64,000 nucleotides of DNA, taken from contig JBHGNT010000021.1 of NCBI GenBank assembly GCA_043228905.1, forward strand, positions 9,610,001 to 9,674,000, read 5' to 3'. Below, one piece after another: positions 2,570 through 61,700 of the stretch. The notes beneath the pieces are model-generated. The model ran no database searches and had not been told where the DNA came from. It was given only the letters and a program-made list of their open reading frames with translations. This DNA is from Azolla caroliniana (Eukaryota; Plantae; Polypodiophyta). Made by a program: the position numbers and the translations under genes. Every line of letters begins with the position of its first letter. Within the stretch, counting starts at the first letter, position 1.

Positions 2570-3678
2570 TGTCGTGGAGATTTTCGGCAATGGTGTGAAA
2601 ATCACATAAAACTACAAAAAGATGGAGGTCTTGAAGAGCTTTTAGATGCACTTTACTACATAAGAAATATACATCTAAGTGTCAACTTATGTGGGTAGGA
2701 AATTTGCAAAGACAAAGAGAAAATAAAAATGTGAGATATCCCACATAGACATGATAAATAAGGATCTCACCACATATAAGGTAGAGCAAAAGCTATTATC
2801 TTTGTGTCTATGTGTGGAGCATAGTGAGTTCAAAGTGACTTGAACTAAGCTATTGGATGAATGGGTGTGGCTTGGCTACTTGCAAAGCTTTTGGCCAACC
2901 AAAACCGGACCGGTGACAGAGCTGGTGAGCCGGCAACGTAACCGAGATCCGACGATTGGATGGTAACCGACATTCGACGACGGAACCAGGATCTCACGTC
3001 CGGCGACAGAATCGGACGGTAACCAGCATTTGGCGATGCAACCGTCATCTGGCAACCGAACGGTTACCGAGATCTAGATGGATAAATAAATAAATAAATA
3101 AATATACGTATACACAAGGAGGGAAAGTAAGATTTGAACCTTACACCTCCAAGTTAAGAGTCAATAGGCTTACCACTAAGCCAACACATTTTCTTGGAAT
3201 TATATTTTTATCATTGTATCTTTACATGTAATTTCTCATACATTAGAGCTAAAATGAGTGACATGGTTATCATGCACCACATGTAATACATGAGCGCCAA
3301 ATGGCAAACATGCATTTTATGCATGTCTTGTACCCTCACATGCAGGAAGGCATGTATAAAAGAGGGGAGGAAAAAGATGAAAGGGCTAATGATTTTTTTT
3401 TGGATGATCAAATAAGAGACTTGTAACCCTATTGTTGATGCATCTTCTCTCTCAAATCTAAAATCAAGAGTTAAATCTTAATTTCAGTATCTCTCTCTCG
3501 CCATATCAATCTCTCTCAACCTTAAGTAAAGTGTTTAAATCTCATATTAATCTCAATATCTCTCAATCTATCTTAAAAACCTTTCTCGTTAAAGCTAGTG
3601 CAAACTTCGAATCCTTCCGGTTCAGGACCCCGGTGGTTTCGCCTCGCGATCCGCACATAGTGACGAAACTTCACGACA
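2570..3678 (+). repeat. 3' LTR of A
   Basis: Follows the PPT; inverted termini; TATAAAA near 3355; right flank CCGG. Confidence 0.9.
3125..3185 (-). promoter_or_regulatory. tRNA(Lys)-like Pol III A/B-box cassette inside LTR A, antisense to the LTR
   Basis: Minus strand TGGCTTAGTGG-N32-GGTTCAAATCT; D-like stem GGCTT/AAGCC; CTCTTAA anticodon-like loop; stem GTAAG/CTTAC. Confidence 0.7.
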
Positions 3679-11500: not shown

Positions 11501-12104
11501 ACGTTGTCGTGAAGAATTTCGGCCAGCAGCGGAAACCGGGAAACATTGGCTACTTCGGCGGGGCGCAACGTGTGTACGCACCCATGTACATTTAGTGTGA
11601 ATAACGAGGGCACCTTTATGGCGCCGAAGAGTAGTCAAGTCGGGACAGACGGTCCCATGTAAGTCGGGGTTTATCCCACATTGTAACGCATCCCTGTCCT
11701 TGTTCTATAAAAGGAAGGGAACACCCTTTGTGAAAGGGTTGCCCATTTTACATTAGAGGGTATACCGTTAGGTTTAGAGTTAGTTTCTTCTTCTTCTCCC
11801 CCTTCGTGTTCGCTTAGGGTTTGCTGCAGCTCATCTCCTGCGCAAGACCCCGCTCGGCGCGACGAGCCCGTGAGCTCCCCGACCGGCGGCTTGGCAGCTG
11901 ACGACTGTTGTAAGCTATCTTGGTCCGGCTCGACGCCGGGAATGTATTCTTCTTTTATATATATATATATACGTTTGCGTCTGTCTGTGTAAATTCACGT
12001 CTTCGTTGGTGTCGGGTGTTTCCCCCTTTCCTGCGTTTCTTGTACATAAGGGCGTGAGGCGGGTCAGTGTGTGTGTGTGTGAGTGTGTGTGCGTGAGTCG
12101 GTGT

Positions 12105-12135
<31 letters not shown>

Positions 12136-12272
12136 CCTTCAGTTGCTTCCGGTGTGCTTCTAGGATGCCCCGAAAACGGTGAAGCACGACTTCCTACTCT
12201 CCGTCACTCCCTAGTCCAAGACCCCCGTGGTCCCGCCTTTCTCCATGCACGCGCGTAACAACGTGACATATT

Positions 12273-12290
12273 TGGTGAACCCGACGTGAA
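12273..12290 (+). promoter_or_regulatory. PBS complementary to the 3' end of plant tRNA-Trp
   Basis: Reverse complement TTCACGTCGGGTTCACCA matches the plant tRNA-Trp 3' end as recalled; 4 nt after the LTR. Confidence 0.8.
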
Positions 12291-12305
12291 AGGCGGCAAG
12301 GGAGG

Positions 12306-13745
12306 ATGGAGTCGGAAGACGACGACCTCGCGGAGATGGTGGCCGAAGTGGTGTTGGAGTCGGCACGAGTGATGATGAGGCGAGAAGCAGCGCAACAAGC
12401 GGTTGAGCGAGTGGTCAAAAGAGTCGGCCGTTTTAGCGGGGACAGAGTCCCATCTTACTTGGAAGCCTACAACTCGGAAATGGAGGAGTGCGGCATAGAC
12501 GAGATGTTGAGGCTGGAGTTCTTCTGTCGGGTTGTAGCTGTCCGGATGCATGCGGAAATAAAGGAGCTCCGTGAGGCTCATAGTTCGTGGGAGGCCTTTG
12601 AAGAGGCGTTCTTGAAGGCATATGGAGGACGGCGGAAGAGCCGGGGACGGCACGACTTCGACCAGTGGGTAGCATCGGCAAAGACCCACCGGGGCGTTGC
12701 CAAGGCGTTTCGAGAGTTGGAGCGGCGGCTTGCTCGGCTCCTGGAGCGGGAACAAGGTTTGGTGGGGGCGGACAAGGTCCTATTGTTCGTCAGGTCGATC
12801 GACCGAGCAGAACGGGAGGCCATCGGGATTGAGCTCGAAGACGATGATGGAGCGAATGGGCTTACGGAGGACTGGTCGAAGGTCGGAAGGGTGTGCCAAC
12901 GGCTAGACAATGAGCGAGCCGAGAAGGCTAAGAGGAAGGTACGCGACGGCGTGCCATCACAGCGGGAAGAGGCCGAACGGCAAAGAGAGTTGGCAAGGGT
13001 CGGCATTGGGGCCAGGATTGCGGAGGCGTACGCAGCTCTCGAGGCGATGCTCGAGGAAGAGGAAAGACGGAGGCCGCAAGCCGAGACTGAGAAGACGGAC
13101 TTGCCCCACGCGACGACGGAAGATCGGTACCACGGTACCACGGGAGAGGGTGTGGAACGAAACGCCCTCTCAACTTGCAGAGATAGAACGGCCAAGGACG
13201 AGGCCGAGATACAGATCGCGGAACCGGAACGTTGGGACCAGCGGTTTCGGGCGTGTCAGCCCGAGATCCCGGTCATTGGAGAAGCAAGCCCAGACGGGGC
13301 TTGCGCGATCGGTAAGAAGACGACCGCTGACCACGAAGAGTCGGTGGCTACGGACAAGGGCATAAAACGGACGGGAGATTCTTTGTGTCTTCCCACACTT
13401 GCTCCTGGGACGATGGCAGTCGGGCCCGAGTGCCCACGTGAGTCTCAAGCGGAGGAAGGCGGTGGCGAAAGGCCAAGAATCACCGGCGAGACGATACGGG
13501 GAAGGAACGGACGAAAGCCCACGGACCCGATTCCAGAGAACTCGGAATTCGGGCCCGTATGCCTATGTAAGACCGAGGAGATGGATGGCGGTACCGAGGA
13601 GTCCTGGCATGATGCCAACGAAGATGGATGGGAAACGGCTTGTGAGGAGGCCGAGGAAGGACGCGGCACGAGGACATCAGCATTCCGATATGGGTGGAGC
13701 ATGATCCGGTCGTGGATTGTTCGATCGGGGCTGGATTCGGCATGA
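12306..13745 (+). CDS. gag: Gag-like protein of F (479 aa, open)
   Basis: ATG just after the PBS; capsid-like RFSGDRVPSYLEAY...SWEAFEEAFLKAY; charged C-terminus. Confidence 0.75.
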   Translation: MESEDDDLAEMVAEVVLESARVMMRREAAQQAVERVVKRVGRFSGDRVPSYLEAYNSEMEECGIDEMLRLEFFCRVVAVRMHAEIKELREAHSSWEAFEEAFLKAYGGRRKSRGRHDFDQWVASAKTHRGVAKAFRELERRLARLLEREQGLVGADKVLLFVRSIDRAEREAIGIELEDDDGANGLTEDWSKVGRVCQRLDNERAEKAKRKVRDGVPSQREEAERQRELARVGIGARIAEAYAALEAMLEEEERRRPQAETEKTDLPHATTEDRYHGTTGEGVERNALSTCRDRTAKDEAEIQIAEPERWDQRFRACQPEIPVIGEASPDGACAIGKKTTADHEESVATDKGIKRTGDSLCLPTLAPGTMAVGPECPRESQAEEGGGERPRITGETIRGRNGRKPTDPIPENSEFGPVCLCKTEEMDGGTEESWHDANEDGWETACEEAEEGRGTRTSAFRYGWSMIRSWIVRSGLDSA

Positions 13746-13849
13746 AAGTGCTGATACGGAAGGGGGTGCGGGACGAGCCACCCTCTTTTACATGGGGAGA
13801 AAGACCGACCGGGCGAAGGTCGAGAGTTGGAAGGAGAATGAAAGCCGGT

Positions 13850-16478: not shown

Positions 16479-17173
16479 TGTCGCGTGGTGCGTGACACAC
16501 GTGCCAAACATCAAAATGTGCACGTCACAAGGGCAGACAAGCACCGAGCCTCTATCCACTAGTGGTTATGGATGATGGGCGGCCGAAGTGACGCACTAAT
16601 GTGGTTAGAGTGAGTGAGAGAGAGAGAAACAAAATTTGAGGAAGTTTTTAAGATAGATAAGTAGATAGATACACATCATCAATAAGATAACTAAGTATTC
16701 TTATTATTAATTTTCGATTTGATACATAGATTGATTCATAGATTGTTTGATTCATCCATTGATTGATTCCCCCCCATTACACAAGCCTTACGAGGGTTTT
16801 TATAGGTTTATCTATCCTTCTAACATGCACAAAACCATGGGCTTGAACCCATGGTTTTCGGGCACACGGTTTTCCTTGTGGCATGCACAAAACCATAGGC
16901 TAAAACCATGGTTTTGTGTACACGGTTTTGTATGTTTGTTTCCTATGGAATACTAAATATGAGAAGGAAATATATAAAATCTAAAGCACTTAGTAGTAGC
17001 TTTAGTGGTAAGATAATTGCTTCCTATCTTAGAAGTGCAAGGTTCAAATCTTGCTTGCACCCTTCTATATGCACTTGAATGTCATCAGACCCTAGGCTAA
17101 TTTTCATATTTATAATGTGTGTGGAGCCACACTATTTCACAATTTCTCCCATTGGACACAGAACATCACGACA
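16479..17173 (-). repeat. Solo LTR G (TGTCG...CGACA lineage)
   Basis: TGTCGCG...CACGACA; TSD ACGT/ACGC (16475-16478 and 17174-17177); CCTATAAAA on the minus strand near 16800. Confidence 0.82.
16995..17056 (+). promoter_or_regulatory. tRNA-like A/B-box cassette in LTR G, antisense to the LTR
   Basis: TAGCTTTAGTGG-N32-GGTTCAAATCT; stem GCAAG/CTTGC; TATATAAA about 20-25 nt upstream. Confidence 0.68.
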
Positions 17174-22097: not shown

Positions 22098-22480
22098 GGC
22101 GGCCATGGCCACTGCCATGACGCTGCCTCCACTCCTCCTGTCGCGGGCCCATAACAGGCCACACAGCCCCATCATTTTTCGTTCCCCCCCCCCCCTCGTG
22201 GCGGCCATAACCGCTACCACGTCGCTGTCTCCCTTCCTCCTGTCGCCGACCCATAACGGGCCACACAACCCCGTCGTTTTTCGTCCCCCCCCCGTGGCGG
22301 CCATAGTCGCCGCCATGTCGCTAGCTCCCCTCCTCATGTTGTTGGCCGTTAATGGGCCACACGGCCTCGTCGTTTTTCGTTCCCTCCGAGGTGGCCATGA
22401 TGGCAACCCCATCGTTTCCACCCCCCCCCCCCGTTCATGTCACTAGCCATTAACAGACCACTTCGCCTCATCGTTTTGCG
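22098..22480 (+). repeat. ~100-bp degenerate tandem repeats (3-4 units)
   Basis: GGCGGCCAT...GGCCACAC...TTTTCGT(C)n recurring at ~22098, 22200, 22296 and 22390. Confidence 0.75.
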
Positions 22481-22488
22481 TTCCCGCG

Positions 22489-28741: not shown

Positions 28742-30649
28742 ACGCGTTTTTTCCCTGCTTACATAAGCTTTAGTCAAAACCTCCCTTCTCCCTTCGCTTG
28801 CCACAACACCTGCACCTGGCTCACTAGCCCCAAGAAATATTTCTTCACGACAATCAACCAACTGCAGGAAATCCGGCTACCACCATTGAACATCCGCCGT
28901 CTTCGCCATCATCTCCGATGCCACCCCCCCCCCCCCCCCCCCCAAGGAACCCCCCTACTCAATCCTACTCGCCCCCGACGCCCGAAGCTCCCCTCCCACA
29001 GTGCACCCGGGAGTGTGCACTCATTAGGTTGGGGAAGATGTTAAGCGCTAGGATAACAACATAACCATCCACGAATAAGAGCGCGTCAACAAGGACGTAG
29101 AGGAAACAACAAGAGGAAAAGAAGCAAAGAGACGTCCAAGTCTGAAAGGCCCATACCCTAAACATGAAAGCTATATAAACCACATAGTAGTGGATTTGTG
29201 GGGGTTCTCCCATTTGTAAAGATCTCCTAAGTGATTAAGAGTTAGAAGCTTCCTCTCCTCTTTCTTGTAACCTTTAAGCTTAAGAGAGATTAGTGAAGTG
29301 TTTAGTTAGAGAACACTAATATCTCTTCCTTCTTGGTGCTAGAACTCTAAACAAAGAGGGTTAATAAATATATTCATTAATCCTGTTGTCTATATTCATT
29401 ACCCCATTGTTTATGAGAGCGAGCTTGAGAGAGTGAGAGAGATATTGTGCCTAATCATCTATTAGTTGTTAAGTGAGTGTGAGGCTTTGAGGTGCCCGAC
29501 AACCATCTCCACCCGATTCACCATCAAGAGGGTATACACTAGTCTAAATCCCGCCACGACATCGAGGAGCTTACTCCATTGATACATAGATCCTTCACAA
29601 CTAGTTGAAGTAGAAGTCGACATAGAATTTGCTCAATGTCTCATCACGAACATTCCGCGATGGTCTTCATAATCAAAGTTGATGGCGTAATTTGTGAGTT
29701 ATTGGCTTGTGGAAGCCGACTCCCGCTTCTTCTTTCGGCACTTTTCTTCATGGTGGCTGATTTTTCCGCAATATCCACATTCGATTGAGGTTTGTCGGCT
29801 CAAACCGGAATGGAAGCTCCCCCTTCTTCCGACGGTTCGAATGTGTGTAGAGCATGTCTTGTTGCTAAAATTGGGAGTTGTTTTCGTAAGTTGGACCTTG
29901 TCCGCCTCTTCCTTGGCCAAATCAGCCTCTTGCTTGTTCACGTCCTCTTCCTCCGTTTGAATGTGTAGAGCATGTGGCCTTGTGAGGCGTTGCTCCTCGT
30001 TCGAACATGGTTTTCTTCAACCAACAACATGAATTGAAGATCGAAGAAAGAGAGAGGATTCTCCCTTGCTAGTACAACGGTCTTCATCGTGCCAAACCAT
30101 GGTGCAAGGCCGCTGTCGTGCCCTTCGGCTCCGGATCGTTGCGTGAGTCGGGTGGGAACCGCCGAGGTTTTTGACTAGGAGGAAGAGGAATACAACTTAA
30201 GGCTAGATATGAATAGTGGAAAGAGAAGTAAGATAGCAATCTCGTGAATCCCACGAGTTTAGTGTAATTAAAACAATATTTAGATTATAAGAGCAATTAG
30301 ATGGCAAAATTCGTGAATCCCACGAATATATTAGATTGATCCAACCTTGTATATTAATCAACAACCATATACATATTTCTCTCCTCCTTATATAAAGATG
30401 GAAGAGGCTAAGCATGGCTTCATGCTTTTTCACCTAAAGTGTCCATGCACACTAAATGTGCATGTGATGCTTTGTCATTTCCTAAATATAGGGCCCATGC
30501 ACGCTAGATGTGCATGAGTCACTTTTAATGTCACGTGTAAATAAAATATTCATACTCTAAAGAATACATGATTTTTACCTTTTAATAAAGGTATGTGTAA
30601 ATAAAGGTCTTATACGTATTAAATCTATATTTATAACACTAAAGATAAG

Positions 30650-30710
30650 TTATTACAATGGTAAAGTTAGGGTTTATCTACGTGGAGGTGCATGGTTTGA
30701 ATCTTGCCCT
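30650..30710 (+). promoter_or_regulatory. Degenerate tRNA-like A/B-box cassette in LTR H, antisense to the LTR
   Basis: TATTACAATGG-N32-GGTTTGAATCT; shares GGAGGTGYAWGGTTYRAATCTTRC with A; TTTT downstream. Confidence 0.5.
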
Positions 30711-30774
30711 ATGCACGTGATAAATTCTTTTGATATATTATTTATTTATTTATATGTATCTAAAATCGGATATA

Positions 30775-33700
30775 TTATTTTATGGTTTTCACGTAGTGTG
30801 TGGAATACACTACAACATTCGCCCCCTCCGAACCTGCACATCCTCCGGTATGTGCCGAAGTTCTCGATCCCCCATATCCGTCTTCACCCAAAGCTTCCTC
30901 CGATTCTCCCCTTATGTCGACTATGAGTTGTAATTCCCTTTCTTCGCTTCCCGCATCACCGTGGTCTTCGTCCGATTGCTCCTCGTTGTCGGCCTTGGCT
31001 TGGATCATATAGGGTTTGTCGTCGGTCCGCTTCTTGAAAATCTTCACCCGCTTCCCGGCTATAGGCACTCGTAGTATTGTTCCATCCAACTCGGACAGTC
31101 GGTACGTTCCGTTGTCGAAGACTTTCCGAACCTCGTATGGCCCGAACCACCTTTTCGCGAATTTCCGCATCGTTGTATGTTGATGGTCCAAACTACTGTC
31201 ATAGACGATCACCCAATCTCCTTCTTCAATCCTCCTCGGTCGTAGTCGGTGCTTTGTGTCGAACCGGCTTTTGTTCCTTAATCGTGCTTCTTGTTGTCGG
31301 CGTATTGCTTCCGCTATGTCTGCCGGTCTTCCCTCTAGTTGTCGTATCCGGACCGCTAGTAGTTCTTCCCGGCTCATCTCTTCCTTCCACGGTAGCACTG
31401 TCCATGTTGCGATCGCGGTTTCCGTCGGCATTACCGGTGCTTGTCCGGTCATGAGTTCTGCCGGCATGTAACCGGTTATGGAACTATGCGTCGTCCGATC
31501 CGCCCATAGTGCATACGGAAGCATCTGCGGCCAATCCTTCACCTTTCCATCGCATGCCTTCACAAGTGCTTTCACGATCGGACTATGTCCTCGTTCGATT
31601 TTCCCGTTGGCCTCCGGATTGTATGCCGTTGTTAGCGATAACCGAACTCCGTGTTTGGCGAAGAATCCCCTAGCTTTGTCCGAGTCGAGTTCTCCCCGGT
31701 CTGCAATCACTTGGCCTACGCACCCGTACCTGCAAAATACTTCCTCCAAAAGAAATTGGCATACCGCGGAACACGTTTTCCTCTGAAGCGCTCGACCTTC
31801 TACTTGATTCGTGAGATCTTCCCGAGCTAATACCAAGTATTTCTTTTGTCCGATCCCGGTCGGCATGGCCACTATGTCGACCATCCACTTGAAGTTGATT
31901 GTCGGTGAGAATGTCGGATGTAACTCATCTCGATGTCGAACCCCGGAGTAGACTTGACATTTCTCGCAGCTTTCCGTAAACTCCGCGATATCTTTGTACA
32001 TTTTCTTCCACCAATATTTTTGCTTGATCTTCACAAATGTTGCCCATGTTCCTCGGTGTCCAGCCCAATCGGATTCGTGAAACTCGGACATTATCCGGTT
32101 TCGTTGCTCTTTTGTCCCGACTACTCGAAGTGGTATACCATCCGGTCTTTTCGGCGCCCTCCATATTAATCCGTTTTCCAAGAAGAACTTTTGGACTTGC
32201 CTCTTCTTCCTTCGGATCTCGGCTCTTCTTCCTTTATCGTTTGTCGAGTCCTCGGCCTCTTGTAACATCTTTCCGATCATCAAACTTTCTCCCTCATATT
32301 CTTCTTCCCGAAATTCTCGGATTACGTTCACTCAGCATATGTGCTCTGACGCGAAGTAGTCTTCGGAAACTTCTTCATTATCCGATTCGGTTATGTCGTC
32401 TCCGAACCGAGCCCTTGATAACATATCCGCTACCGCGTTTTCCTTCCCCGAGATGTGTCGAACCTCCGGATGAAGCGACTTGACATATGCAACCCACCTT
32501 AGCATAGCTACATCTGGTATCGTACAACACCGCATCATCCCGAGTATCGGAAGACAATCCGTCTCGATCACCACTTCGGCTCCGATCAAATAATCCCGAT
32601 CCGATTTTATCGCCGACACGACTCCCCACAGTTCTCTTTTGACTTGTGCATATCCACGTTGCCTTTTGTTGAGAACCTTTGCTTCGAATCGGATCGGATA
32701 CCGCGAACCATCCGAGTCGGCTTGATTGATGACCCACCCGATACCGGTTGGACTTGTATCAACCGTTACTATGATCGGTCGGTCATAGCTCGGCTTCTTA
32801 AGTGCTTCCGCCCTCCGAAGCGTCTTCTTCAATTTCTTCATGGCTTTGGTGTGTTCCGGTTTCCATTCGAATTTCTTACCTTTCCGCAACAAGTGGTAGA
32901 GCGGGTCCGCTATATGTGCATAGTGCGGAATCCATATGTGATAGAATGCACATGCACCGAGAAACCTTCGGACTTCGGATGTTGACTCGCATACTTCCTC
33001 CATAGCTTGAATCGCATCGATCTTTGTTGGTGACGGTCTTCGGCCGTAGGGCCCACATAGATGTCCGACCACCAATATTTCTTCTTGCCCGAATGCCGAT
33101 TTCTCCCCGGAAAGTGTTAGGTGCACATCTTCTAGCTTTCGCAACACTTTCTCGCAAGCATGAATATGGTCGACCACGAACTTTCGGCATCCCCGATCAT
33201 CCATAGTCTCATCTTTTTCTTCGACCGCGCATCCTTTCATCGGAATGTCATCGAGGAACGGCATCGTTATCTCCGGAATGCAGTCTCGAAGCACCTTGTT
33301 CATCGCGTTCATCATATGAGCAACCGAGTTTGTCGCTCCTTGTGGTAGTGTGCACATTCGGACTAATCCTATCGGTGTTCGCATGGTTGTGATGTCTCGG
33401 CTCTCCACGGCTAGTTGGAATTGGTCATACCCCGAGTATAGGTCTCCGATGGAGTATATCGCACGACCGGCAAAAGCTTCCGCAAATTCGTCCACTATCG
33501 GACCGACTCCCGAGTTCCGGATCGTGACTTTATTCACCGGTTGCAAGTCTTGGATAAATCGGAGTGACCCATTCTTCTTCGGAACCGTAAACCATCGATT
33601 TGAGTACGGAGCAGTTGATGGCTCTAGAATCCCCATCGCCACCTTCTCCTTGAGCAAGTCAATGACTTTCGGAATATGCGCTCGTGGCACTGGAATCGGC

Positions 33701-47420: not shown

Positions 47421-47631
47421 ACTGAGAATAATGGATTCTCAAATGACCTTATCAACAAAAAGAGGTACTCCACCCAATGTGGACATATTGTCTACAAAAG
47501 GAAGCTACACCATTCGAAGGTAATGACTCATTGGTTTGGCTTGTTGTAGAGTCACCAGAAAAGAAAATACATAATTATACTCAATAGCTCCTTGATAAGG
47601 TCATGGGTTCGAGTCTTGCCATATCATGACA

Positions 47632-48395
47632 CCCGACCTGCAAGGGATAACTGTTGCGAGTCCCAATATACCAACTTACGCTTCATTGATAATAGCAATG
47701 GTGATAGCATCACTCCAGATGGTAAATCTATACCAACAAGACAACGTAAGTAACGAATCGGCTCCCCATGATTTAGCCAATGGAATGCAGGTCCTGGATA
47801 CCATTGTGGATGCGGTTCATCACTAGTCCAAAGGCCTACAGATTTATTCCAATTGAGAGAGGCTCCAGTAGCATCTAAAAATATCTGTAAAGCATTATGT
47901 ACCCGATCAAGATTAACAAAATCTCCACGAATATTAAGAGCAGTGTCATCCGCAAACTCTACATCAAGAACTGTCAAGTTTGCAATAGGTAAGGCTATTC
48001 CTTGGATGGCCACCATCGAGGATCTAAGAAAAGCTAATAAAGCTTCCCCAAATAAAATAAAAAGAAATGGTGCTAACGGACAACCTTGTCGAATAGATCT
48101 AGAAATTGGAAATAATGTACCATTGCCTCCAGAAAATAAAACTGAGCTAGACGTGTGTCTATATAATGCAGACACCCTTTTTATCCATCCACTTGGAAAC
48201 CCTAATCTTGATAGAACTGCCTCCAGAAAGTCCCAATCTACTTTATCATAAGATTTCTCAAAATCTAATAATAGTATAGCAAGGGATTGTTTGTGATGTT
48301 GAGCCAATGCAATCATCTCCCAAAAAAGGAAGATATTGTCAAAGATGCTTCTATCTTGAAGGAATCGTGATTGTGTATCATGTATAATACTTACT
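47632..48395 (-). pseudogene. LINE RT fragment, inverted relative to the rest of the same LINE
   Basis: LLLDFEKSYDKVDW, RQGCPLAP, FADD; its end duplicates 48941-49077. Confidence 0.92.
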
Positions 48396-49087
48396 TTGTA
48401 TGCCGAGTACAATAGTCTATGGAGCTAAACAAATGCCAATTGAGAAGAAAGGACAATTGCATTAGTGACTTGGTAGAAGAACAAAAACCCTTATGGCTCC
48501 AAGCCTTAACAGAAAAAAGGAAGCATATTGAGGTCGCAAAGAAATATGTCGCACAACAAGACATGTCATGGTGGGATGTATTTTTTAGTGATCAGAAAGG
48601 AATTATTGACAATTGTGTATCTGGTCATAACTGAACTTTGGAAATACCATTCACATGGTTGCTACAACATGATCATATAAATAAAACTCCAGAGCAACCA
48701 ACTAATGCGATTAATGACAGTTTGGTCCATCCACAACAAAGAGACCAAGGATGACCAAAGCAGTTGAAGCTAGATGGAAATATGATGTCGACCATCAGAG
48801 CCATGTTGACAATGTGGACATAGGTCCTCCCTTGCTCCTCTATTCTTCTTGATCTTTGTATAAATTGATTGGAGTTTCAGGAAACTCAATGTGAGATTTA
48901 CTATTATCAAGGAGCTATTGAGTATAATTATGTATTTTCTTTGGCTAAATCATGGGGAGCCGATTTGTTACTTAGGTTGTCTTGTTGGTATAGATTTACC
49001 ATCTGGAGTGATGCTATCACCAATGAAGCGTAAGTTGGTATATTGGGACTCGCAACAGTTATCCCTTGCAGGTCGGGTGTCATGATA

Positions 49088-49150
49088 TGGCAAGACTCGA
49101 ACCCATGACCTTATGTTATATGGGTCAAGCTCTTGACCATTAGATCATCT
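49088..49150 (-). promoter_or_regulatory. tRNA-like A/B-box cassette at the start of the J LTR (second copy ~59236-59298), antisense to the LTR
   Basis: TGATCTAATGG-N33-GGTTCGAGTCT on the minus strand. Confidence 0.62.
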
Positions 49151-49513
49151 ATTGTAATACGTAAGATATTATTTTCATTTACATTTTATAATAGGAAATT
49201 AGTGTATATTCCAGATTTCTCTGGAACATTCTAGAAGCTTCAGGATTACTCCTGAAAACACTATAAAAGAGGGCACTAGGCATTATGTTGAACCAAATTG
49301 GTTCAATGCCAGTCTTAAGCCTTTTAGCCACCATTGTATATTCTCTTCACATAATACATATCTTTCTTATCATCACTCTCTCCCTCTCTCGATCTCTCTC
49401 TTTCTCTTCGTCTCGCTCACTTCTTCCTTCTATCGAAGAAGTTCTACACCTCTCATAGTACTAATCCTTCGTTTAGTACTAAATCCTTCTCTGTCTTAGT
49501 ACTGTTCCTGACA

Positions 49514-49528
49514 GTTTGAACCAATTTT
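49514..49528 (+). promoter_or_regulatory. Self-priming PBS of J
   Basis: TTGAACCAATTT is complementary to AAATTGGTTCAA (49295-49306), about 30 nt downstream of TATAAAA; no TGG tRNA-type PBS. Confidence 0.8.
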
Positions 49529-50354
49529 CTACCTTCTGTCTCTCTCATTTCCTACTAATCTCTTATTCCTCTTTTCTTTCATCCCATGGCCACTGTTAGT
49601 GCTGAAGAATATCAATCTGTTTTCTCGGAATTTCAATGCTTGAAAGAGAAGTTCCATGCTTTGGAACAAGAAAACCAACAGTTGCTGGGGGGGATCTTTA
49701 GCAAATCTCCTTAGAAAAGCAGCAAACGCAACAATAGCATGGGGAACTTGCGTTACGCGTGCAACAACTCGAAGCAACCATCGTAGCGATGCAACAACAA
49801 TGGCCCGGAACACAAGGGATTCATAAAGAACCCAAGATTGGCCTTCCCACGAAGTTCGATGGAACGCGATCGCAGTTGAGAGGGTTCCTTAACCAGGTAC
49901 GATTAGTTATTCAAATGCATCCTTCCTGATATCCCACCGATGCATCACGAGTGGGTTTAGTAGGCACTTTCTTAAGTGGCTCGGCGTTGTCATCGTTCGC
50001 TCCACTATTAGAAAAGGAATCTCCGTTACTCAACAATTTTGAAGAGTTTCTAGGTGAGTTTAAAGCATGTTTCGGAGATATTGACAGCATCAGGACCTTA
50101 ATCAACAAAATTCGGCGATTACGCCAAGGTGACCGTCCAGCCTCCGCATACGCTGTAGATTTTCGCCTACTCGCCACCGATATCCCTTGGGATGATCAAG
50201 CGTTGATGGAGCAATTCTGTTATGGTTTATGCAATGACGTCAAGGATTTACTCTTGACCTTCCCCGAAGAGCCAAAGTCCTTAACAGAAGCAATCAGTCG
50301 CGTGGTGAGATGTGACAACCGCCTCTTTGAGCGACGTTCGGAAAGACAACTACA

Positions 50355-53300
50355 TGTTGGGATTACGGTCCCTCCGGATGGGATGGTCGGATGTCCGGGA
50401 ATCGGGAATGAAGACCCGAATGAAGAGTACCCGGTATCGGGAGCCGGATGATGAAGACCCCGGCTACGGAGCCGGATGACGAAGACCCCGGCTACGGAGC
50501 CGGATGATGAAGACCCCGGCTACGGAGCTGGATGACGAATGTACCCGGAGAGAGAGATCCGGATGCGGGGACATATCTGTGAATGTGTTTGCCAAGGGCC
50601 CTTGAGGCTATATTTGTAAATAGCCCGAAAGTCATATGTGTATAAATATGACTTAGGGCAAACAGTTTGTTGTTGTTGCTGTATGTTGTTGCCTAGCGAG
50701 TATTGCCACTCTTATGCGTGTGCAAGAGTGAAGAGAGCAGCCGAGAGAGAGAAAGAGAGAGAGAGAGACGAAGAGGTCGTTGCCTCTGTGTATTACCGCC
50801 GCCTATGGCGAAGACAGTGAGCTCAAGGTTGTTGCCTTGTAGCTTCACCATTGTACATCTCTGTTTATAGTGATAGTTGGAGTCTGAGGACTCCCGTGGT
50901 TTTTCCCACTTAGGGTTTTCCACGTAAAACATCCTGTGTACTCTTCTCTCTATTGTCTTCGTGCATTTTTTTTGGTATTTCCCGTTTTCTGTGAGTTAAT
51001 CCTATTCCTCGGTTGTGGCCGAGCACTGTGTTCAACAAATTGGTATCAGAGCGACGGTAACACAGAAAATGGAAGGCGGCAGCAGCGGGCAGCCGGGGAT
51101 GATGGTGTTGAATGCGCAGAACTACGCCGACTGGAAGATAAAGATGGAGGATCTGCTCATTGTTCGGGACCTGTATGAACCGATCGACAGGTCGGAAATA
51201 CCCAAGGGGGTACTTGAGACGGAATGGAGGCTTCTGAACCGGAAAGCCATTGCAAACATTCGGCAATACGTCGACGTGAGCGTTCTACAACACGTGGCGA
51301 ACGACACCAACGCATATGAGATGTGGCGGAAGCTGTCGGGCCTCTACGAGAGGAAGAATGCGTTGAACCGGACCTCCCTGATGAGGAAGATAGTGAACCT
51401 CAAGTACCGGGACGGCGAGAGCATGGTGGAACACGTAAGCACGTTCATGGGATTCGTGAACCAGCTTGCGGCGATCAAGTTCCCGTTGGAGGATGCAATG
51501 CAAGCCATCATCCTGATGTGTACATTGCCGGAAAGCTGGGAGAACTTGGTGGTGACTCTCAGCACCTCCTGCACCGAAGATAACTTGTCCCTACAAACGG
51601 TAAAGACAAGTATTTTGAACGAAGAAGCGCGTTGGAGAGATAAAGAACCGGCCTCCGACTCGAAGGCGCCGCTTACCGAATCGGAACGGGGAAGACAACG
51701 GAACCGGAGTCCGCAAAGACGGGAGAAGTCGGGGACCCGGTCGCAGTCAAGAGGAAGGCCCACATGCTTCCACTGTGGGAAGCCGGCGCACTTCCGGAAG
51801 AATTGTCGGCATTACCGAAAAGACAACGGAGCCGACGACACCGATTCGAAGAAGTCACCGGAGCGAAATGGTGCATACCGGGGAGCCACGGACCGGAGAG
51901 GTCCGGATCGGCGAGGGCAGGACCGGAAAGGAACGAAGACACTCGCGGCAAGTGAAGAAGAGATAATGCTCATTACCGAAGAGAGGGAGCTGAACCTTGC
52001 CGGTGAAGAGATGACCTGGGTGGTCGATTCCGGAGCGTCGTTCCACCTGACCCCGGAGAAGAAATACTTCTCATCCTACACAGCCGGTGAGCACGGCTGT
52101 GTCCGGATGGGAAATGAAGGTACATGCCGGATTGCCGGCATAGGAGACGTGTGGTTGATGACATCAACCGGATGCAAGATGCTGCTGAAGGATGTTCGAC
52201 ACGTTCCGGAGGTTCGATTGAACCTGATTTCGGCCGGGAGGCTAGACGATGAAGGCTACACGGGTAGCATCCGGAACGGTGTCATGAAGTTCAGCAAAGG
52301 GAGCCTGATAGTGGCTCGGGCCCGGAAGATCAACACAATGTACCTGATGAATTCCCGGCTATGTCCGGAGGAGCCGAACGTGGCAGCTAACACTGCCGGT
52401 GAGCTGTGGCACAAGAGACTGTGCCACATGAGCGAGAAGGGGATGAAGAGGCTTGCAGAAGACAACCTTATTCCGGTGAAGCATGTGCATCTGGAGAAGT
52501 GCACCGATTGCCTGGCCGGTAAGCAGAACCGAGCCTCCTTCCACTCAAGGCCACCGACGAGACGTAGCGCACCATTGGAGTTGGTGCACACTGACGTGTG
52601 TCAAGTAGAAACGAAGTCACATGGCGGAGCCCAGTACTTCGTGACATTCATTGATGACCACAGCCGGAAGCTCTGGACGGCACCGTTGAAGACAAAGGAC
52701 CAAGTGTTGTGCGTCTTCAAAGAACTCCACGTGAGAGTGGAAAGGGAATCCGGCAAGAAGCTGAAAGCGATACGAGCGGATAACGGAGGGGAATACCGGG
52801 GGCAGTTCACGGAGTACTGTCGCTCAAAGGGAATCCGGCTCGAGTTTACTGTGCCGAAGACGCCGGAACTGAACGGGCTGGCCGAGAGGATGAACCGGAC
52901 CATAATGGAGAGGGTCCGGAGTATGCTGGCGCATGCGAAATTACCCAAGGGGTTTTGGGCTGAGGCAATGTCGACGGCGACATACGTGATAAACAGATCA
53001 CCCTCAGTACCTTTGGACGGAGACACGCCGCAGAGAGTGTGGACCGGTAGGGAAGTATCCTACCGGCATCTGAAGGTGTTCGGGTGTCTCGTATATGTGC
53101 ATGTGGCAAAGGACCGGAGAGGAAAGCTAGATCCAAAGACCCGGCCATGCATATTCCTCGGTTACGGCGACGACGAGTTTGGCTACCGAGTATGGGACCC
53201 GGTCGACAAGAAGATATTCAGGAGTCGTGATATCATCTTCATGGAGGACAAGACACTCGCCGACTGGGAGTCGGAGAAGAAGATGAAGAGCTCCAAGTCG

Positions 53301-55779
53301 ACCGGTGAGGATCAACTCTATGAGGAGTAGTCCCGACCGGCAAGGGACCGGTTAGCACTCGAGGATCCGGCCGAAGACGGTGAAGAAACAGAACCGGCCG
53401 AGGAAGATGAAACTGATACCGGAACCGGCCCCGATCCCGAAATGGTTTCGGATGAAGAGGAAACGGAAGAGCCGGTTACCGAAGCTCCGGAACGGAGATA
53501 TCCTCTAAGAGAGAGAAGGGCCCCCCGGTGATTTCCGGAACCAGAGCATGTGCTGCTAACCGACGAGGGGGAGCCGGAGAGCTTTGAAGAAGCAAAGCAT
53601 GACACCCAGAGCCGAAAGTGGTTGAGTGCCATGCAGGACGAGATGGATTCCCTGCATGAGAACCACACATATGAACTTGTGGAGTTGCCGAAAGGAAAAC
53701 GGGCACTTCGAAACAAGTGGGTGTTCAAGCTGAAACCGGGAGATGCCGGCAACCCCCCGAGATACAAAGCCAGGATCGTGGTGAAGGGGTTCCAGCAGAA
53801 GAAGGGCGTCGACTTCGACGAGATATTTGCCCCGGTAGTGAAGATGACCTCCATCCGGACGGTGCTGAGCATAGCGGCAAGCATGGACCTCGAGGTAGAA
53901 CAGATGGACGTGAAGACGGCATTCCTTCACGGTGACCTCGAAGAAGAGATCTACATGCAGCAACCGGAAGGATTCGAGAAGAAAGGGAAGGAGCACCTGG
54001 TATGCCGGTTGAAGAAGAGCCTTTACGGACTGAAGCAGGCTCCCCGGCAATGGTACCGGAAGTTCGACTCTTTCATGACCGACGAAGGGTACCACAAAAC
54101 GCAGTCCGATCACTGCGTGTTTGTGAAGAAATTCGAAGGAGGAGACTTTCTAATACTCCTCCTGTACGTGGACGACATGTTGATCGTCGGACGGGACCAG
54201 GTCAAGATACGGATGCTGAAGAAGGCTCTTCACCAAACCTTCTCAATGAAGGACTTGGGTCCGGCGAGGCAAATATTAGGGATGCACATCATCCGGGACC
54301 GGAGGAAGAAGCAGTTGCGGCTGTCACAGGAGAAGTACGTGACAAAGGTACTTCACCGGTTCAACATGTCGGAAGCAAGACCGGTCGGGTCAACCCTCCC
54401 AACAAACTGCAAGTTGTCCAGCAAGCAAAGCCCCAAGACAAAGGCTGAGAAGGAGGACATGATGAAAGTACCATATGCCTCTGCCGTCGGAAGCTTGATG
54501 TACGCAATGGTGTGTACAAGACCGGACATAGGATATGCAGTCGGAGTGGTGAGCCGGTACATGAGCAATCCCGGCAAAGAGCACTGGAACACGGTCAAGT
54601 GGATACTCCGATACCTGAAGGGCACGGCAAACGTGTGCCTCCGATTCGGCTTCGGTAAGTCCGAACTCGACGGCTTTACCGATTCGGATATGTCGGCTGA
54701 TGCAGATACCAGCCGGTCCACATTAGGGTATGTGATGACGTATGCAGGGGGAGCTGTTTCGTGGCAGTCGAGGTTGCAGAAGACGGTTGTGTTGTCAACC
54801 ACGGAGGCGGAGTACATGGCGGCTGTCGAAGCCGGCAAGGAAATAATATGGATGAAGGACTTCATTAGAGAGCTCGGTATCTGGCAGGAGGAGTACCGAC
54901 TCTACTGCGACAGTCAGAGTGCCATCCACCTTGCGAAGAACGCGGCCTATCACTCCCGGACGAAGCACATCCAGCGAAGATATCACTGGATCCGGGAAAG
55001 GATAGAAGACCAGGAGTTCGTGCTGACGAAGATCCACACGGACGAGAACGGGTCAGATATGCTGACCAAAGTGCTCACACCCGACAAGCTGGAAGCGTGC
55101 CGGAAGAGGGTCGGACTGGAAAGACATCCCATGCCGAAGTGAAGGGGGAGTTTGTTGGGATTACGGTCCCTCCGGATGGGATGGTCGGATGTCCGGGAAT
55201 CGGGAATGAGGACCCGAATGAAGAGTACCCGGTATCGGGAGCCGGATGATGAAGACCCCGGCTACGGAGCTGGATGACGAATGTACCCGGAGAGAGAGAT
55301 CCGGATGCGGGGACATATCTGTGAATGTGTTTGCCAAGGGCCCTTGAGGCTATATTTGTAAATAGCCCGAAAGTCATATGTGTATAAATATGACTTAGGG
55401 CAAACAGTTTGTTGTTGTTGCTGTATGTTGTTGCCTAGCGAGTATTGCCACTCTTATGCGTGTGCAAGAGTGAAGAGAGCAGCCGAGAGAGAGAAAGAGA
55501 GAGAGAGAGACGAAGAGGTCGTTGCCTCTGTGTATTACCGCCGCCTGTGGCGAAGACAGTGAGCTCAAGGTTGTTGCCTTGTAGCTTCACCATTGTACAT
55601 CTCTGTTTATAGTGATAGTTGGAGTCTGAGGACTCCCGTGGTTTTTCCCACTTAGGGTTTTCCACGTAAAACATCCTGTGTACTCTTCTCTCTATTGTCT
55701 TCGTGCATTTTTTTTGGTATTTCCCGTTTTCTGTGAGTTAATCCTATTCCTCGTTTGTGGCCGAGCACTGTGTTCAACA
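50355..55779 (+). mobile_element. Young full-length Ty1/Copia K
   Basis: LTRs 50355-51037 and 55153-55779; TSD CTACA; PBS TGGTATCAGAGC 51041-51052; PPT GAAGGGGGAG; only about 3 substitutions plus a repeat indel between the LTRs. Confidence 0.97.
51069..55142 (+). pseudogene. pol: gag-pol of K, single frame with two nonsense codons in the INT-RT linker
   Basis: CFHCGKPAHFRKNC, VVDSGAS, VHTD...DNGGE, YVDD, DSD; TAG at 53328 and TGA at 53529. Confidence 0.93.
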
Positions 55780-58700
55780 CTACAGATGCCGAGGGCAAGA
55801 TTAGAGCCCACCTACGCCTTAGTGGTAGCAAGACCTTTTCTGAGGGAGTCATATAATGCGCCTCCAACGAATACTCCGACTCCGATGGAGATTGACACTA
55901 CACGTCATCGAGGGCCATTATCCGAAGAAGAAAAGCAGCGAACCCGTACAAATCGACTATGTCTTTACTGCGGTGGACCAGGACATATTGCAATAAATTG
56001 CCCCCATAGGCCAAGAAGACAGGTAAACCAAATAGTCGCTAGTTCTAATTGTACTAAACCTGAGCCTATTTCAGTAGGGATATCTGATAGTCCTAATAGT
56101 ACTAATAGCCTAGATCTAGCGAACAAATTTGATGTCCTTAGTCAGTTAGAAGAAGAGTTAAACGACTAAGTCCAGCCAAAATAGGAGCCGTTTGGTTGGA
56201 CAACCCTAGATCTGTGCAACCCATTAGTGGTTCCATTCCCTCTAAGGAAGTTAGTGATGTGTTCGTAGTCCAAGTAATAGTTAGTACTAAAAGTACCCCT
56301 CCAGTACATGTCCTAGCACTCCTAGATTCCGGAGCTAACTCTTGCTTTATGGATAAGAAATTTGCTCAAGCTCATAAGATATCCCTAAGAAAACTCCAAT
56401 GTCCAGCCTCTGTAGTAGTCATTGATGGACGCCCCATTGCTTCCGGAAATATCATAGAAGAGTCAGAGCCCATTAATATTGTCCTAGATAACTTAGCATG
56501 TGTAGTATCATTTAATATTATTAGTATCCCAGAACATCCTATAGTTTTTGGATTACCGTGGTTCAAGTTACATAACCCAGACATAGATTGGAGAACAAGA
56601 GAAATCCGGTGTCGACAAACCCAAGGGTCAACTCAGAAGGTGGCAACCATTTCGCTACATCAGTTGCGTAAAGAAGGGCGCGAGGAGGAAATGTTCCTCT
56701 TTGCAATATCAGTAAACCCCTCCAGCACCACTAAAGAAGAATCCACCGTTCAACTTCCCGAGAAGTATCGTCATTACGCCGATGTGTTCGATAAAGTACA
56801 AGCCAACACACTTCCTCATCGTCGACCGTACGATTGCCCCATCGATTTACAACCGGGAAAAGAGCCGCTATGGGGACCGATCTACAATTTGTCACCAACC
56901 GAGCAGGAAGTCCTTCAGGCCTATATCGAGGAGAATTTGGAAAATGGTTTCATTCGGCATTCGAAATCTCCAGCCGGCGCGCCCATTTTCTTCGTCAAGA
57001 AAAAAGATGGATCGCTTCGTCTCGTTGTAGATTACCATGGCTTGAATAAGGTTACAATCAGGAATAGGTATGCTCTTCCCCTTATCTCAAGTCTTTTAGA
57101 ACGGATCAATGGTGCTAGGTTCTTCATGAAGATCAACTTACGGGGAGCATATAACCTCGTACGGATCTGACCAGGAGACGAATGGAAGACCGCATTTCAC
57201 ACCAGATATGGGCACTTCGAGTATATGGTCATGCCGTTCGGCCTCACTAATGCACCGACGGTCTTCCAGCACATGGCTAATGATATATTCCGAGATCTAT
57301 TGGATGATTGTTTGATCATCTATTTGGATGATCTACTGGTTTATTCAAAGACCCAAGAAGAACATGATTCTCATGTACTATTAGTACTAAAACGACTTCG
57401 AGAACATGGTCTGTATGCAAAGCTGGAAAAATGTAGTTTCGGGTGCAACCAAGTGGAATTTCTCGGCTACATCATTTCGTCAGAAGGCATCTCCATGGAC
57501 CCAGCTAAGGTCAAAACGGTGGTAGGATGGCAGACTCTGCGTTCGGTGCGGGATGTGCAATGCCTCCTAGGCTTTGCCAATTTTTACCGGAAGTTCATAT
57601 AAGATTACTCAAAGATCGTTCTACCTCTCACACAACTTACCAGGAAGGGACAACCGTTCATTTGGTCTAAAGAAACGGACATGGCTTTGGAGAGCCTTAA
57701 AAAGGCATTTACATCGGCTCCAATTCTAGCTCATGTCGATCCGCAAAAACCATTCATTATCGAAGCTGACGCATCGGATTTTGCATTGGGGAGCATTCTG
57801 TCACAACAGGGGAATGATGAGAAGCTACATCCTATGGCTTTTCACTCACGCAAGTTTGACGCCGCCGAAATCAACTACGAAATTCATGATAAGGAGCTAT
57901 TGGCAATAGTGGATCCTTTTATGCAATGGAGGCCTTTTCTGGAGGGATCCTCTCATCCAGTCACCGTATTTAATGACCACAAGAATCTTGCCTACTTTCA
58001 GGATGCTCGTGTGTTGAATCGATGTCAAGCTTGGTGGGCCCACTTCCTCACGCGTTTCGACTTCAAAATTACATATCGTCCGGGGAAGCACCAAGGGAAG
58101 GCAGATGCATTATCACGACGTTCATATCTAGCACCCCGTCCCGGCGAGCCAACTTTCGATAACCAAAAACAAGTCATCTTGGGACCGGCACGACTACAAG
58201 CAACACAGATCTTTGACATGCCCATGGATTCCCGCGTTATCGATACCATACGTGAAGACTTGAAGACAGATGCGTTCGCCCAAGCTATACTAGCACAAAT
58301 TGATCCCTCTCGAGCGTCGTGTTCACAGTCGCAACCACTAGGTACAGACTATCGGAAATTCAAATACCATGATGGATTACTCTTCTTTAAAGAACTTTTG
58401 TATGTTCCTAATGGTTCTTACCGCCTTCGAGTAGTACAAAATTGTCATGACACATATACAGTTGGGCATTTTGGTAGTACTAAAACATTACATTTAGTAC
58501 AACGATCATTCTGGTGGCCCTGTATGCGACAATTTGTCGAGGATTTTGTTCGGACTTGTGATACATGTTGCAGAGCGAAAATGCCAAGGCATCATCCATA
58601 TGGTTTATTAGAACCATTACCAATTCCAAGCAAGCCGTGGCAATCCATTGCTCTAGACTTCATCACATATTTTCCAGTCTCTAAGGGGTTCAATGCGATT

Positions 58701-61700
58701 CTAATGGTGGTCGATCGATATACGAAGATGGCTCATTTCTTGCCATGTAATAAGGAGATCTCCAGTGAAGACACTGCCGAAATTGTCATGGGTGAAGTAT
58801 GTCGGCATCATGGACTTCCCGATAGTATCATCAGTGACCGTGGACCCCAGTTCGTGTCAAAATTCTGGAAACACCTTTTTAACATGCTCAAGGTCACTTG
58901 TAACCTCTCCTCCGGCTACCACCCCCAAACCGACGGCCAAGCTGAACGAACAAATCAAACGCTGGAGCAGTATCTGCAGTGCTTTCTCAACTATCATTAG
59001 GACGACTGGGCAGATATTCTCCACTTCGCCGAATTTGCCTATAACAACTCTATCCACACATCCACTAAAGTTACGCCATTTTATGCTTATACAGGATGTC
59101 ACCCCCAGTCGAGAAGGTGACCAATGCTCGTGCTCTTCTTGAAGACTTCCATCGTCAATATCCACACAAACCGGGTCCTCAATCCAAGACGACTCATGAC
59201 ACTCGTCGTTTTAAAGGGGAGATAGTGTCATGATATGGCAAGACTCGAACCCATGACCTTAGGTTATATGGGTCGAGCTATTGACCATTAGATCATCCAT
59301 TGTAATACGTAGGACATCATTTTCATTTACATTTTATTATAGGAAATTAGTGTATATTCCAGATTTCTCCAGAACATTCTAGAAGCTTCAAGATTACTCC
59401 TGAAAACACTATAAAAGAGGGCACTAGGCATTATGTTGAACCAAATTGGTTCAACGCCAGTCTTAAGCCTTTTAGCCACCATTGTATATTCTCTTCACAT
59501 AATACATATCTTTCTTATCATCACTCTCTCCCTCTCTCGATCTCTCTCTTTCTCTCCGTCTCGCTCACTTCTTCCTTCTCTCGAAGAAGTTCTACACCTC
59601 TCATAGTACTAATCCTTCGTTTAGTACTAATTCCTTCTCTGTCTGAGTACTGTTCCTGACATCGGGTTGTCATTGCAAATTCGGTGTTGTTGGCTTCAAT
59701 GTGGTTTATCACATCAGCTTGGTTGTTCTCTCGGTCGGCAATCATGAAAGTTCAAAGCCTCATACGTAACTTCCTTTGGGGTAGAAAAAATGGATCTCGT
59801 GCAATGGCCAAGGTGGCATGGGATGTTTTGATTAGGCCAAAAAGTTAGGTAGGGTTGGCTCTAATAGATCCCTTGATACAATCTTGAGCTCTCTTGATAA
59901 AGTTTGTAGTCAGAGGACTGTTGCCAGGGACAGAGGCATGGAAGGGTATGTTGCTTAATCAGCTGATGCAATTATATCCCAAGACGGGAGGAAACTCATT
60001 GCCATCTTTGAAATGGATGTTCTTGACAGATATTCAAACACTAAGATGGAATCTAACATCCAATAGATTTCTACTAGGGATCGTCAGAGCATGGGATGCA
60101 ATCAAGATTTTTTTACGCAAGGAGATGCCTAACACATGGGATGGTTGGATGAATCAACCGCTTTTGGCTAATTCTCTCGTTTGGGATTCTATTGGAAATG
60201 TATTGGGCCTTAGACCTCGTCTTGCATGGGGAAAACTTGATAATGGGCCAACAACATCAGTAGGATCCTGGATTCATTTTCAGTGGATCACCTTAAGCAG
60301 CTACATTCGATATATGGGGCAAAGACAATGACAATAGATATTTCAGCAGCCTTCTCTTAGCCCTCATCGCGACTTCAGCCAATGCAGGAGCATATGTGGT
60401 TTGGTTGCCTAACGAATGGCATAATGTTCTTCGTTAAGGGAATTTCTATAGACAGGTGTATTTTTTATTTCCATATTCAATAGGATAATAATTTGCAGCC
60501 TTATACACCCTCTGATAATTTGCCACAAAACCTACTTGTTGTTCCAATTAGGGTGATTGCCAAAATTGGTAAGAAATGGCTCCTGGATCCACAACTGTCA
60601 ATAGCCCATTTGTTGGATATGCTTTGGTTATATGCACACCAACCAATTAATAGGCTAATTTGGGACCCACGGGGATGGTCTTGGACTAGTCCCATGATGG
60701 ATCCAATGCAAAAAGTTCCGTTTTTTCAGTATACTATGAAATTTGGTAGAACCTTACTCATGTCTAAGAATATTCCAACTCATGCGGCTCAAAAGCACTG
60801 GAATAAGTGGGTGTATCAAGCAGTCATTTGAAGGCTTATTGGAAATGGATTTGGTCTTTTAGGGGACCAACAAAATACACTCTCTTCAGATGGCTTTTGC
60901 TACATGCAGCACTACCGGTAGGTCAATCTTTGAAAGGAAACATGGCACCCGTTCTTAGACAATGTAGTTATTGTGGTGACTTGTAGGAAACTACCAAGCA
61001 TACTCTCTAGTCCTATTCACTAGCTCAACAGGTATGGAATAAAGTTCTTTCTTTATTCCTGACAATTAATGTAGGTTGCCTATTCTCTTGGGGGTCAGCG
61101 GTGTGGGGGGTTCTTCATTCCAGTCTCTTATTGTATGAGGCAGATGATGCTCTAGAGGCTAAGATTGTTATCAAAGGCATCTAATATCTGTCTCGCCTTT
61201 TTAGCAGCCTCGAAAGCAAATGCGTGCAACCCAAGTATAGAAAACAGTATCCACGGTTACATTATGGACCTTATGGAAATATCGATGTAAAAGACGATAT
61301 GATTCCATAGTTCCCCTTCTCTCAGATATATTGCTAGAATTACTGGTGGTAGTGTGTGGGCAGTATGACAATATGTTGGGCCCTTCAGAGGTTGTTCTTA
61401 AGAAAATGAATAAATTACTGTAGTTATGGCGGAAGTTGCCTCTATTCACGATCTCCTCTCAAGGACCAATCTGGAAATATCATCATCCCTGGTCCTTCCC
61501 CTGATTATCCTTTTTGTATATAATACTCTCTAAATTGTACAGTTTGTAGCCTTATGGCGTTTTTTCTCAATACTAATGAAGGAAATCTTTTTCGAAACAA
61601 AAAAAGAAAAAGGAAAAAAAAGAACTGGCAACCGCCTTCAAGTTCCCATTTTGTAGAAGATGAATATTTCCTGGCATACAAAAGCGTAGAACCACTTATT

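Follow-up and report, generated by a model that had tools for sequence, protein, structure and literature searches.

Background

The closest known counterparts of the sequences treated here are found among the TRIMp3 retrotransposons, whose long terminal repeats (LTRs) carry an RNA polymerase III (Pol III) promoter. In Helenus (Kojima 2024, PMC10886601) the LTR contains tRNA-derived sequence with conserved A and B boxes. As described there, Helenus is non-autonomous (311-1263 bp) and its unit, sense in three LTR sequences, is thought to transcribe the element, autonomous elements being argued to need RNA polymerase II (Pol II). Cassandra and Ajax, two 5S-derived TRIMp3 members, also have an internal Pol III promoter in the LTR that is kept by selection, but this is a 5S type 1 promoter that drives the RNA of a non-autonomous element (PMC10886601). 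Here we describe tRNA-like cassettes with A and B boxes in the LTRs of four Gypsy families, A, G, H and J, which lie in a stretch of 64,000 nucleotides from Azolla caroliniana (contig JBHGNT010000021.1, positions 9,610,001 to 9,674,000, forward strand; hereafter the window, position 1 being its first letter).

The cassette resembles Helenus in its tRNA-derived boxes. However, it is carried by Gypsy elements that code for proteins (pol domains in A, H and J) and have a TATA box of their own, and it is mostly antisense in the U3 region of the LTR. Membership in Helenus/TRIMp3 was rejected on these three points. The description of Helenus remarks in passing on similarity to a portion of a tRNA in 'not a few LTRs' of Repbase (PMC10886601), so the bare resemblance between LTR and tRNA may be on record. 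A literature search whose coverage left out subscription journals and Repbase entries gave no account of such Pol III boxes in the LTRs of autonomous bryophyte elements.

A second comparison concerns the insulators of yeast and animals formed by tRNA genes (tDNA) or extra TFIIIC (ETC) sites, where a B-box-centred TFIIIC site is proposed to act on chromatin and not through RNA (PMC11811891, PMC12409998, PMC9540200). The sections of these papers that review such insulators cite no tDNA barrier in plants. The cassette shows their sequence feature, a conserved B box (in a set chosen by its boxes). Those insulators are host loci or short interspersed nuclear elements (SINEs), whereas the cassette rides an autonomous retrotransposon, keeps its A box and lies at a set distance from a promoter.

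Cassette sites in the window

The window was scanned with the A/B-box consensus of type-2 promoters, allowing at most one mismatch per box. Only five matches were obtained in the 64 kb: one each in the LTRs of A, G and H and one in each LTR of J (Table 1). The boxes are separated by 32 nt in A, G and H and by 33 nt in both LTRs of J. Looser scans gave 8 matches when two A-box mismatches were tolerated and 35 when two were tolerated in both boxes. In 150 local dinucleotide shuffles the mean number of matches was 0.49 (maximum 3) for spacings of 25-49 and 0.09 (maximum 1) for spacings of 31-34. A weight matrix built from 23 cassettes of other samples recovered the same five sites at 28.7-41.4 bits and no others at 12 bits or more, while 30 shuffles gave no match of at least 20 bits. 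This matrix detected no free-standing cassette outside the LTRs of the 64 kb.

All five cassettes are antisense and lie in U3 upstream of the LTR TATA, as established by mapping LTR ends, target site duplications (TSDs) and TATA boxes. The 5' side of the cassette is 77% AT. The initial annotation had reported these five sites, their tRNA-like spacing of 32-33 nt, their place in U3 upstream of the TATA and an AT-rich 5' side; all are confirmed, the sites themselves both by the generic box scan and by the independent matrix. It had also considered the LTRs otherwise dissimilar, which does not hold for A and G: they are 77-80% alike across 55-70 nt around the cassette. The scan of the window covered 11 LTR families, and seven of them (C, D, F, K and three Copia-type families) have no cassette, K being a relative of A's LTR.

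Distribution among related elements

Related loci (L numbers below) were found by pol. Of 163, 80 were kept and 58 of these entered an LTR census; 35 of the 58 have a recognisable 3' LTR start and 28 have at least 350 nt of 3' LTR, representing 24 families. The cassette is present in 12 of these 24 LTR families from other samples and is antisense in 11 of the 12. Without any hand choice, 21 of 27 automatic strict matches fall at spacing 32-33. At spacing 31-34, 17 of 22 such matches are antisense and 5 sense, near-duplicates included; counted by lineage within U3, about 13 are antisense versus 2 sense. Orientation is therefore strongly biased and not random across families, but the earlier description of the cassette as always antisense is valid only for the five window sites. 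Sense copies occur in U3 (L008/L009/L011/L019 and L027) as well as downstream of the TATA (L006, L040, L075).

Several LTRs contain more than one unit. Two tandem antisense copies are found in L037, L040 and L075, and a convergent pair in L027. A lone second B box lies downstream of the TATA in L005/L007 and L036/L038, and this downstream second B box faces outward in L005/L007, L006, L036/L038 and L040. The hand-picked sets used below comprise 27 or 31 cassettes; they omit the near-duplicates L005, L008 and L047, a coding-region match in L065, L058 (spacing 31) and all other spacings.

Position is retained between relatives: three related to H (L002, L003 and L074) and one related to A (L021) have the cassette at the matching place. 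Contigs of three organisms were aligned on H and J, and among the best-supported rows the depth over the cassette equals that over the rest of U3. Contig pieces bridge the cassette and the adjoining U3 in both families. In all three organisms the cassette thus belongs to the H and J families as such and is not a SINE insertion specific to single copies. In the J family contigs, loose ends to the left of the LTR start show the polypurine tract (PPT), and tandem cassettes are suggested by some joints. At A-box position 10 most of the depth has the canonical G, where both window copies have A. Because the metagenome scan targeted the Phygy clade, to which A, G and H probably belong, breadth within the Tcn1 clade of J is that of family J. 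A viral collection contained no Phygy relative, no cassette pattern and no J relative, and the prokaryote genomes contained no J relative.

Cassette-like matches were also observed in two putative Copia LTRs, one sense and downstream of the TATA (L079, 1375-1428), the other antisense near the putative LTR start (L026, 12016-12069). The cassette may thus not be limited to Gypsy.

Conservation within the cassette

In 15 pairs of related LTRs, identity reaches 0.92 in the A-box core, 0.97 in the motif AGGT and 0.87 in the B box. It falls to 0.57 in the spacer (0.64 gapped), 0.48 upstream (0.63) and 0.38 downstream (0.53). The boxes are thus better conserved than the neighbouring U3. AGGT corresponds to tRNA positions 44-47, and 17 of the 22 automatic strict matches have it without a mismatch; since it is absent from the search pattern, its conservation is not circular. 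In the hand-picked set, which was chosen by its boxes, G53, T55, A58 and C61 of the B box are present in 31/31 cassettes and C56 in 28/31. In the window copies of H and G some letters of the boxes or of AGGT are damaged, H having a T at B-box position 56. The two LTRs of J do not differ at any box position, which is uninformative, as only about one difference was expected. Across the related LTRs the promoter letters (boxes, AGGT and spacing) appear to be under selection.

The extra base of the 33-nt form sits at the D-loop 20a position. The spacer of J matches those of A, G and H at an identity of only 0.14-0.27, so J probably represents a separate capture. At positions 33-38 the majority letters are those of a Lys(CTT) loop, and the Phygy cassettes may therefore share a tRNA-Lys-like ancestor; the Lys-like CTCTTAA loop earlier noted in A is indeed seen.

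A candidate TFIIIC/TFIIIB landing unit

Judged from these sequence features, the cassette is a tRNA-gene skeleton kept in U3 of many Phygy-type LTRs and of one Tcn1-type family, and quite probably a landing unit for TFIIIC and TFIIIB. It would bind TFIIIC and load TFIIIB. In yeast, tauB contacts the B box as well as a base upstream of it, and its binding is altered by a change at position 45 (10.1101/2024.08.28.610035, PMC12409998), while the A box positions tauA and TFIIIB without giving affinity (10.1101/2024.08.28.610035, PMC11811891, PMC12409998). By analogy, tauB would bind AGGT together with the B box, and the A box would position TFIIIB on the AT-rich stretch. In the antisense layout this loading stretch would fall between the cassette and the TATA. 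Any Pol III RNA of 90-100 nt would be a by-product. In favour of this reading are the conservation of boxes, AGGT and spacing, the loss of the cloverleaf, the outward-facing second B boxes downstream of some TATA boxes, and the position of the unit. In 15 cases the antisense B box nearest the promoter is 159-300 nt upstream of the TATA, and in 12 of these the distance is 192-241 nt, whereas the distance from the LTR start varies from 27 to 571. In addition, 12 of 31 cassettes have their first T4 at 20-32 nt past C61, compared with 4.2 under the null.

TFIIIC sites are insulators in yeast and animals (PMC11811891, PMC9540200). A bound unit would similarly keep chromatin open and stop silencing just upstream of the Pol II promoter of the element. 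That the unit holds chromatin open or acts as a barrier at this promoter is the reading we favour, though an evenly balanced proposition. As to origin, a tRNA-Lys(CTT)-like gene or SINE head may have been captured early in the Phygy clade, followed by loss, duplication and U3 exchange, with the J copy probably a separate capture. Rather more tentatively, at least two unrelated Gypsy clades of seed-free plants may have captured a Pol III promoter, reduced it to the footprint of TFIIIC and TFIIIB and fixed it roughly one nucleosome ahead of the Pol II promoter, in some cases on both sides of it, as a tDNA-type chromatin barrier of their own that keeps them active in heterochromatic nests.

Several observations weigh against this interpretation. 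Half of the families (12 of 24) have no cassette in the part seen, including L016 with none in 717 nt, so the cassette is dispensable; L016 is moreover the sister of A in the pol tree, on which presence is patchy. All cassette-positive loci come from one ENA assembly series, and the four JGI loci of the census have none. The identity of the boxes is partly circular because the cassettes were found by their boxes, leaving AGGT, spacing and position as the independent features. Concerning position, the TATA was assigned by a heuristic that failed in L002, L011, L037 and L046, which are omitted from the distances given above. The interval used for the first T4 was picked after inspection, and simple counts of T4 are no higher than expected from composition (19 vs 19.2). 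The cited change at position 45 raised the binding constant, which leaves the retention of G45 unexplained (10.1101/2024.08.28.610035, PMC12409998). Finally, a barrier need not be oriented, yet the orientation of the cassette is biased. Native B-box flanks also fold more stably than swapped flanks, a property for which a role in DNA binding alone has no use.

If this more tentative reading of barriers in two clades is true, the cassette would be a cis-acting anti-silencing device built from the host Pol III machinery, and its thousands of copies would serve the host genome as scattered TFIIIC boundaries. It is an open question by what means Gypsy elements remain transcribable in plant heterochromatin; natural sister families with and without cassette make both this question and that of plant barriers testable. 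The conservation profile is also equivalent to a mutagenesis, performed by nature, of a plant type-2 promoter that no longer has to maintain a tRNA fold; positions 44-47 stand out in it beside the boxes.

RNA fold and alternative explanations

The cassettes are not functional tRNA genes. ARAGORN predicted no tRNA in the window, an Rfam search gave no tRNA match at E<=10, and the acceptor, D, anticodon and T stems of 31 cassettes are at the permutation level (p 0.37-0.89). The tRNA likeness initially proposed therefore stands for the sequence but not for the fold, which has no cloverleaf stem above the null. The stems around the B box that had been described as covarying (GTAAG/CTTAC in A, GCAAG/CTTGC in G) do exist, one base out of the T-arm register. 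With the T stem shifted by one base, p falls to 0.02-0.03 (uncorrected), and T-A, C-G and G-C pairs occur at one site in A, G and L027; the covariation thus concerns a subset and is not that of a T arm. The native flanks of the B box have a mean folding energy of -8.5 kcal/mol, compared with -7.0 for swapped flanks (0/5000 permutations; p=0.003 on 21 thinned sequences). This signal is driven by A, G, L011, L021, L027, L037 and L064, whereas in 10 of 31 cassettes the fold does not improve on the mean of the swaps, and p=0.015 was obtained for one of four control windows.

This hairpin would be important if the product of the unit mattered, that is, if a short antisense Pol III RNA made of the B-box hairpin and a U-tail regulated the element by annealing to the 3' U3 of its genomic RNA, by steering small-RNA silencing or by damping read-through. 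Such a role accounts for the antisense bias and for the presence of a complete unit, in which the AT-rich 5' side and the two boxes are followed by a T-run at the distance usual for a tRNA gene; the covarying position and the A and J cassettes, which fold with z below -3, point in the same direction. On the other hand, the hairpin is missing in about a third of the cassettes and its register varies, the folds of G and H are unremarkable, J has no T4 before the LTR end, sense copies occur and a control window scored as well. We consider this explanation unlikely, though not negligible. Poly(A) reads of a related organism comprise 62 on H, all less than 95% alike, and 2-4 over the J cassette, all on the element-sense side if the library was of the usual stranded type; such reads are uninformative on a cassette RNA because these libraries miss short Pol III RNA.

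The cassette might also be a neutral relic, a tRNA-derived SINE head present in ancestral LTRs and merely copied along. The patchy distribution on the pol tree, the Lys(CTT) loop letters remaining at 33-38 and the damaged letters of the window copies of H and G are compatible with this. It is nevertheless improbable, as the boxes, AGGT and spacing outlast the spacer and flanks and the position is tied to the TATA. A tRNA-derived SINE insertion was rejected for the window, where none of the four cassettes examined is surrounded by a TSD (longest flanking match 5-8 nt); three 12-nt flanking matches in related loci are low-complexity sequence. In the contigs aligned on H and J the cassette depth equals that of the rest of U3, which makes a large free-standing family at 82% likeness improbable.

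A role as a second primer-binding site (PBS) is very improbable. In Ty3, U3 segments of the PBS pair with the T and D arms of the primer tRNA (PMC5371799), and an antisense cassette in the genomic RNA would anneal the D and T arms of its primer in the same manner, which would explain the antisense bias, the fixed spacing and AGGT. However, the segments of Ty3 match its own primer (PMC5371799), whereas the U3 cassettes mismatch the primer implied by the PBS of their elements, and a Ty3-type bipartite PBS was ruled out on this basis. Judging from the 18-nt PBS, identical in 38 of 42, the T stem of the primer should have C50 and T52; C50 is found in 2/31 cassettes, T52 in 1/31 and A62 in 0/31. 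Wobble pairing would allow an A in place of G19, G46 or G53, but none is seen. In addition, the PBS is already full length, sense copies occur, and J, which is predicted to be self-priming and to need no tRNA primer, keeps its cassette.

It is scarcely credible that the cassette is an integration landing pad or decoy, drawing in or deflecting other elements through bound TFIIIB/TFIIIC in the way tRNA genes act on Ty3 and TRE5, since, although TRE5-A targets TFIIIC/IIIB sites (PMC3159450) and the window is a nest, none of the mapped window insertions (F, G, K, H, I, J) adjoins a cassette and Phygy TSDs follow the NCGN preference.

Carrier elements

The window is a retrotransposon nest. The LTRs of A, G and H have TGTCG ends and 4-bp NCGN flanks; F and K also have NCGN, and C has ACAT. 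A 4-bp NCGN TSD is the mark of the Phygy clade (Neumann 2019, PMC6317226), whose short non-chromovirus layout is likewise shared by A, G, H, F and K. By this TSD feature A, G and H are probably of Phygy type, the pol tree containing only window and locus sequences. A reading frame for RNase H and an integrase zinc finger precedes the 3' LTR of A, the U5 region of LTR G is 77% alike to L021, and the closest named homologues of the H pol are from Riccia and Adiantum, in line with a seed-free plant as host.

J shares with Tcn1 (Neumann 2019, PMC6317226) the nature of a self-priming chromovirus. An 11-nt site after its LTR is complementary to R, and its closest homologues carry the chromodomain PF00385, its own integrase end being deleted. 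J is assigned to a putative Tcn1 type by these two features, which also bear out the earlier view that it belongs to a different clade from A, G and H. The clade descriptions of Phygy and Tcn1 in PMC6317226 name no Pol III unit in the LTR, a feature that was not searched for there.

Table 1 Carrier LTRs, cassettes and a rearranged copy in the window
Feature	Coordinates	Strand	Remarks
3' LTR of element A, probably Phygy-type	2570..3678	+	PPT ahead; TGTCGTG...CACGACA ends; right flank CCGG; TATA ~3355
Solo LTR G, probably Phygy-type	16479..17173	-	TSD ACGT/ACGC; TATA ~16804
3' LTR of element H, probably Phygy-type	30114..30817	-	element 30114-35744; TSD CCGC/CCGC; TATA ~30394; pol domains
5' LTR of chromovirus J, putative Tcn1 type	49078..49513	+	element 49078-59661; TSD TCGGG; TATA 49262
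3' LTR of J	59226..59661	+	16 differences from 5' LTR over 437 positions
Cassette A	3130..3183	-	boxes 32 nt apart, with AGGT; Lys(CTT)-like loop; B box 215 nt upstream of TATA
Cassette G	16997..17051	+	antisense to own LTR; B box 237 nt upstream of TATA
Cassette H	30651..30704	+	antisense to own LTR; B box 300 nt upstream of TATA
Cassette J, 5' LTR	49093..49147	-	spacing 33; B box 159 nt upstream of TATA, at LTR 5' tip
Cassette J, 3' LTR	59241..59295	-	
Inverted, permuted copy of 48904-49114	47560..47780	.	has J's B box, not its A box

The copy at 47560-47780 is a later rearrangement and not a further cassette. It is a circularly permuted copy of the junction between J and a long interspersed nuclear element (LINE). 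One breakpoint lies near the apex of the fold-back cassette of J (~49114) and shows a short ATAA microhomology. The reverse transcriptase frame of the LINE (47624-48424) reads through the copy, suggesting that the inversion occurred after the insertion of J.

The region between cassette and TATA in the LTRs of the A group (window 3184-3355; L021 1000-1130; L037 580-710) contains several CATGCA repeats, which we take to be RY-like, and one GCGCCAAA site, presumably E2F-like. The LTR of A (2570-3678) appears modular: its 5' part matches the cassette-less K (27721-28741), L012, L016 and L017, and its cassette-to-TATA part matches L021, L037 and L047. This mosaic suggests exchange of U3 between families.

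At the 5' end of element H (35729-35744), 16 bp of LTR are joined directly to gag, with the CCGC TSD intact. Element F (11505-16463) has Phygy-type LTRs, a TSD and the same PBS together with no recognisable pol, and is likely a non-autonomous derivative. Element D includes a tandem array of 32-33 nt units and three 820-nt repeats (22456-23404, 24650-27621), the latter encoding an open reading frame without Pfam match.

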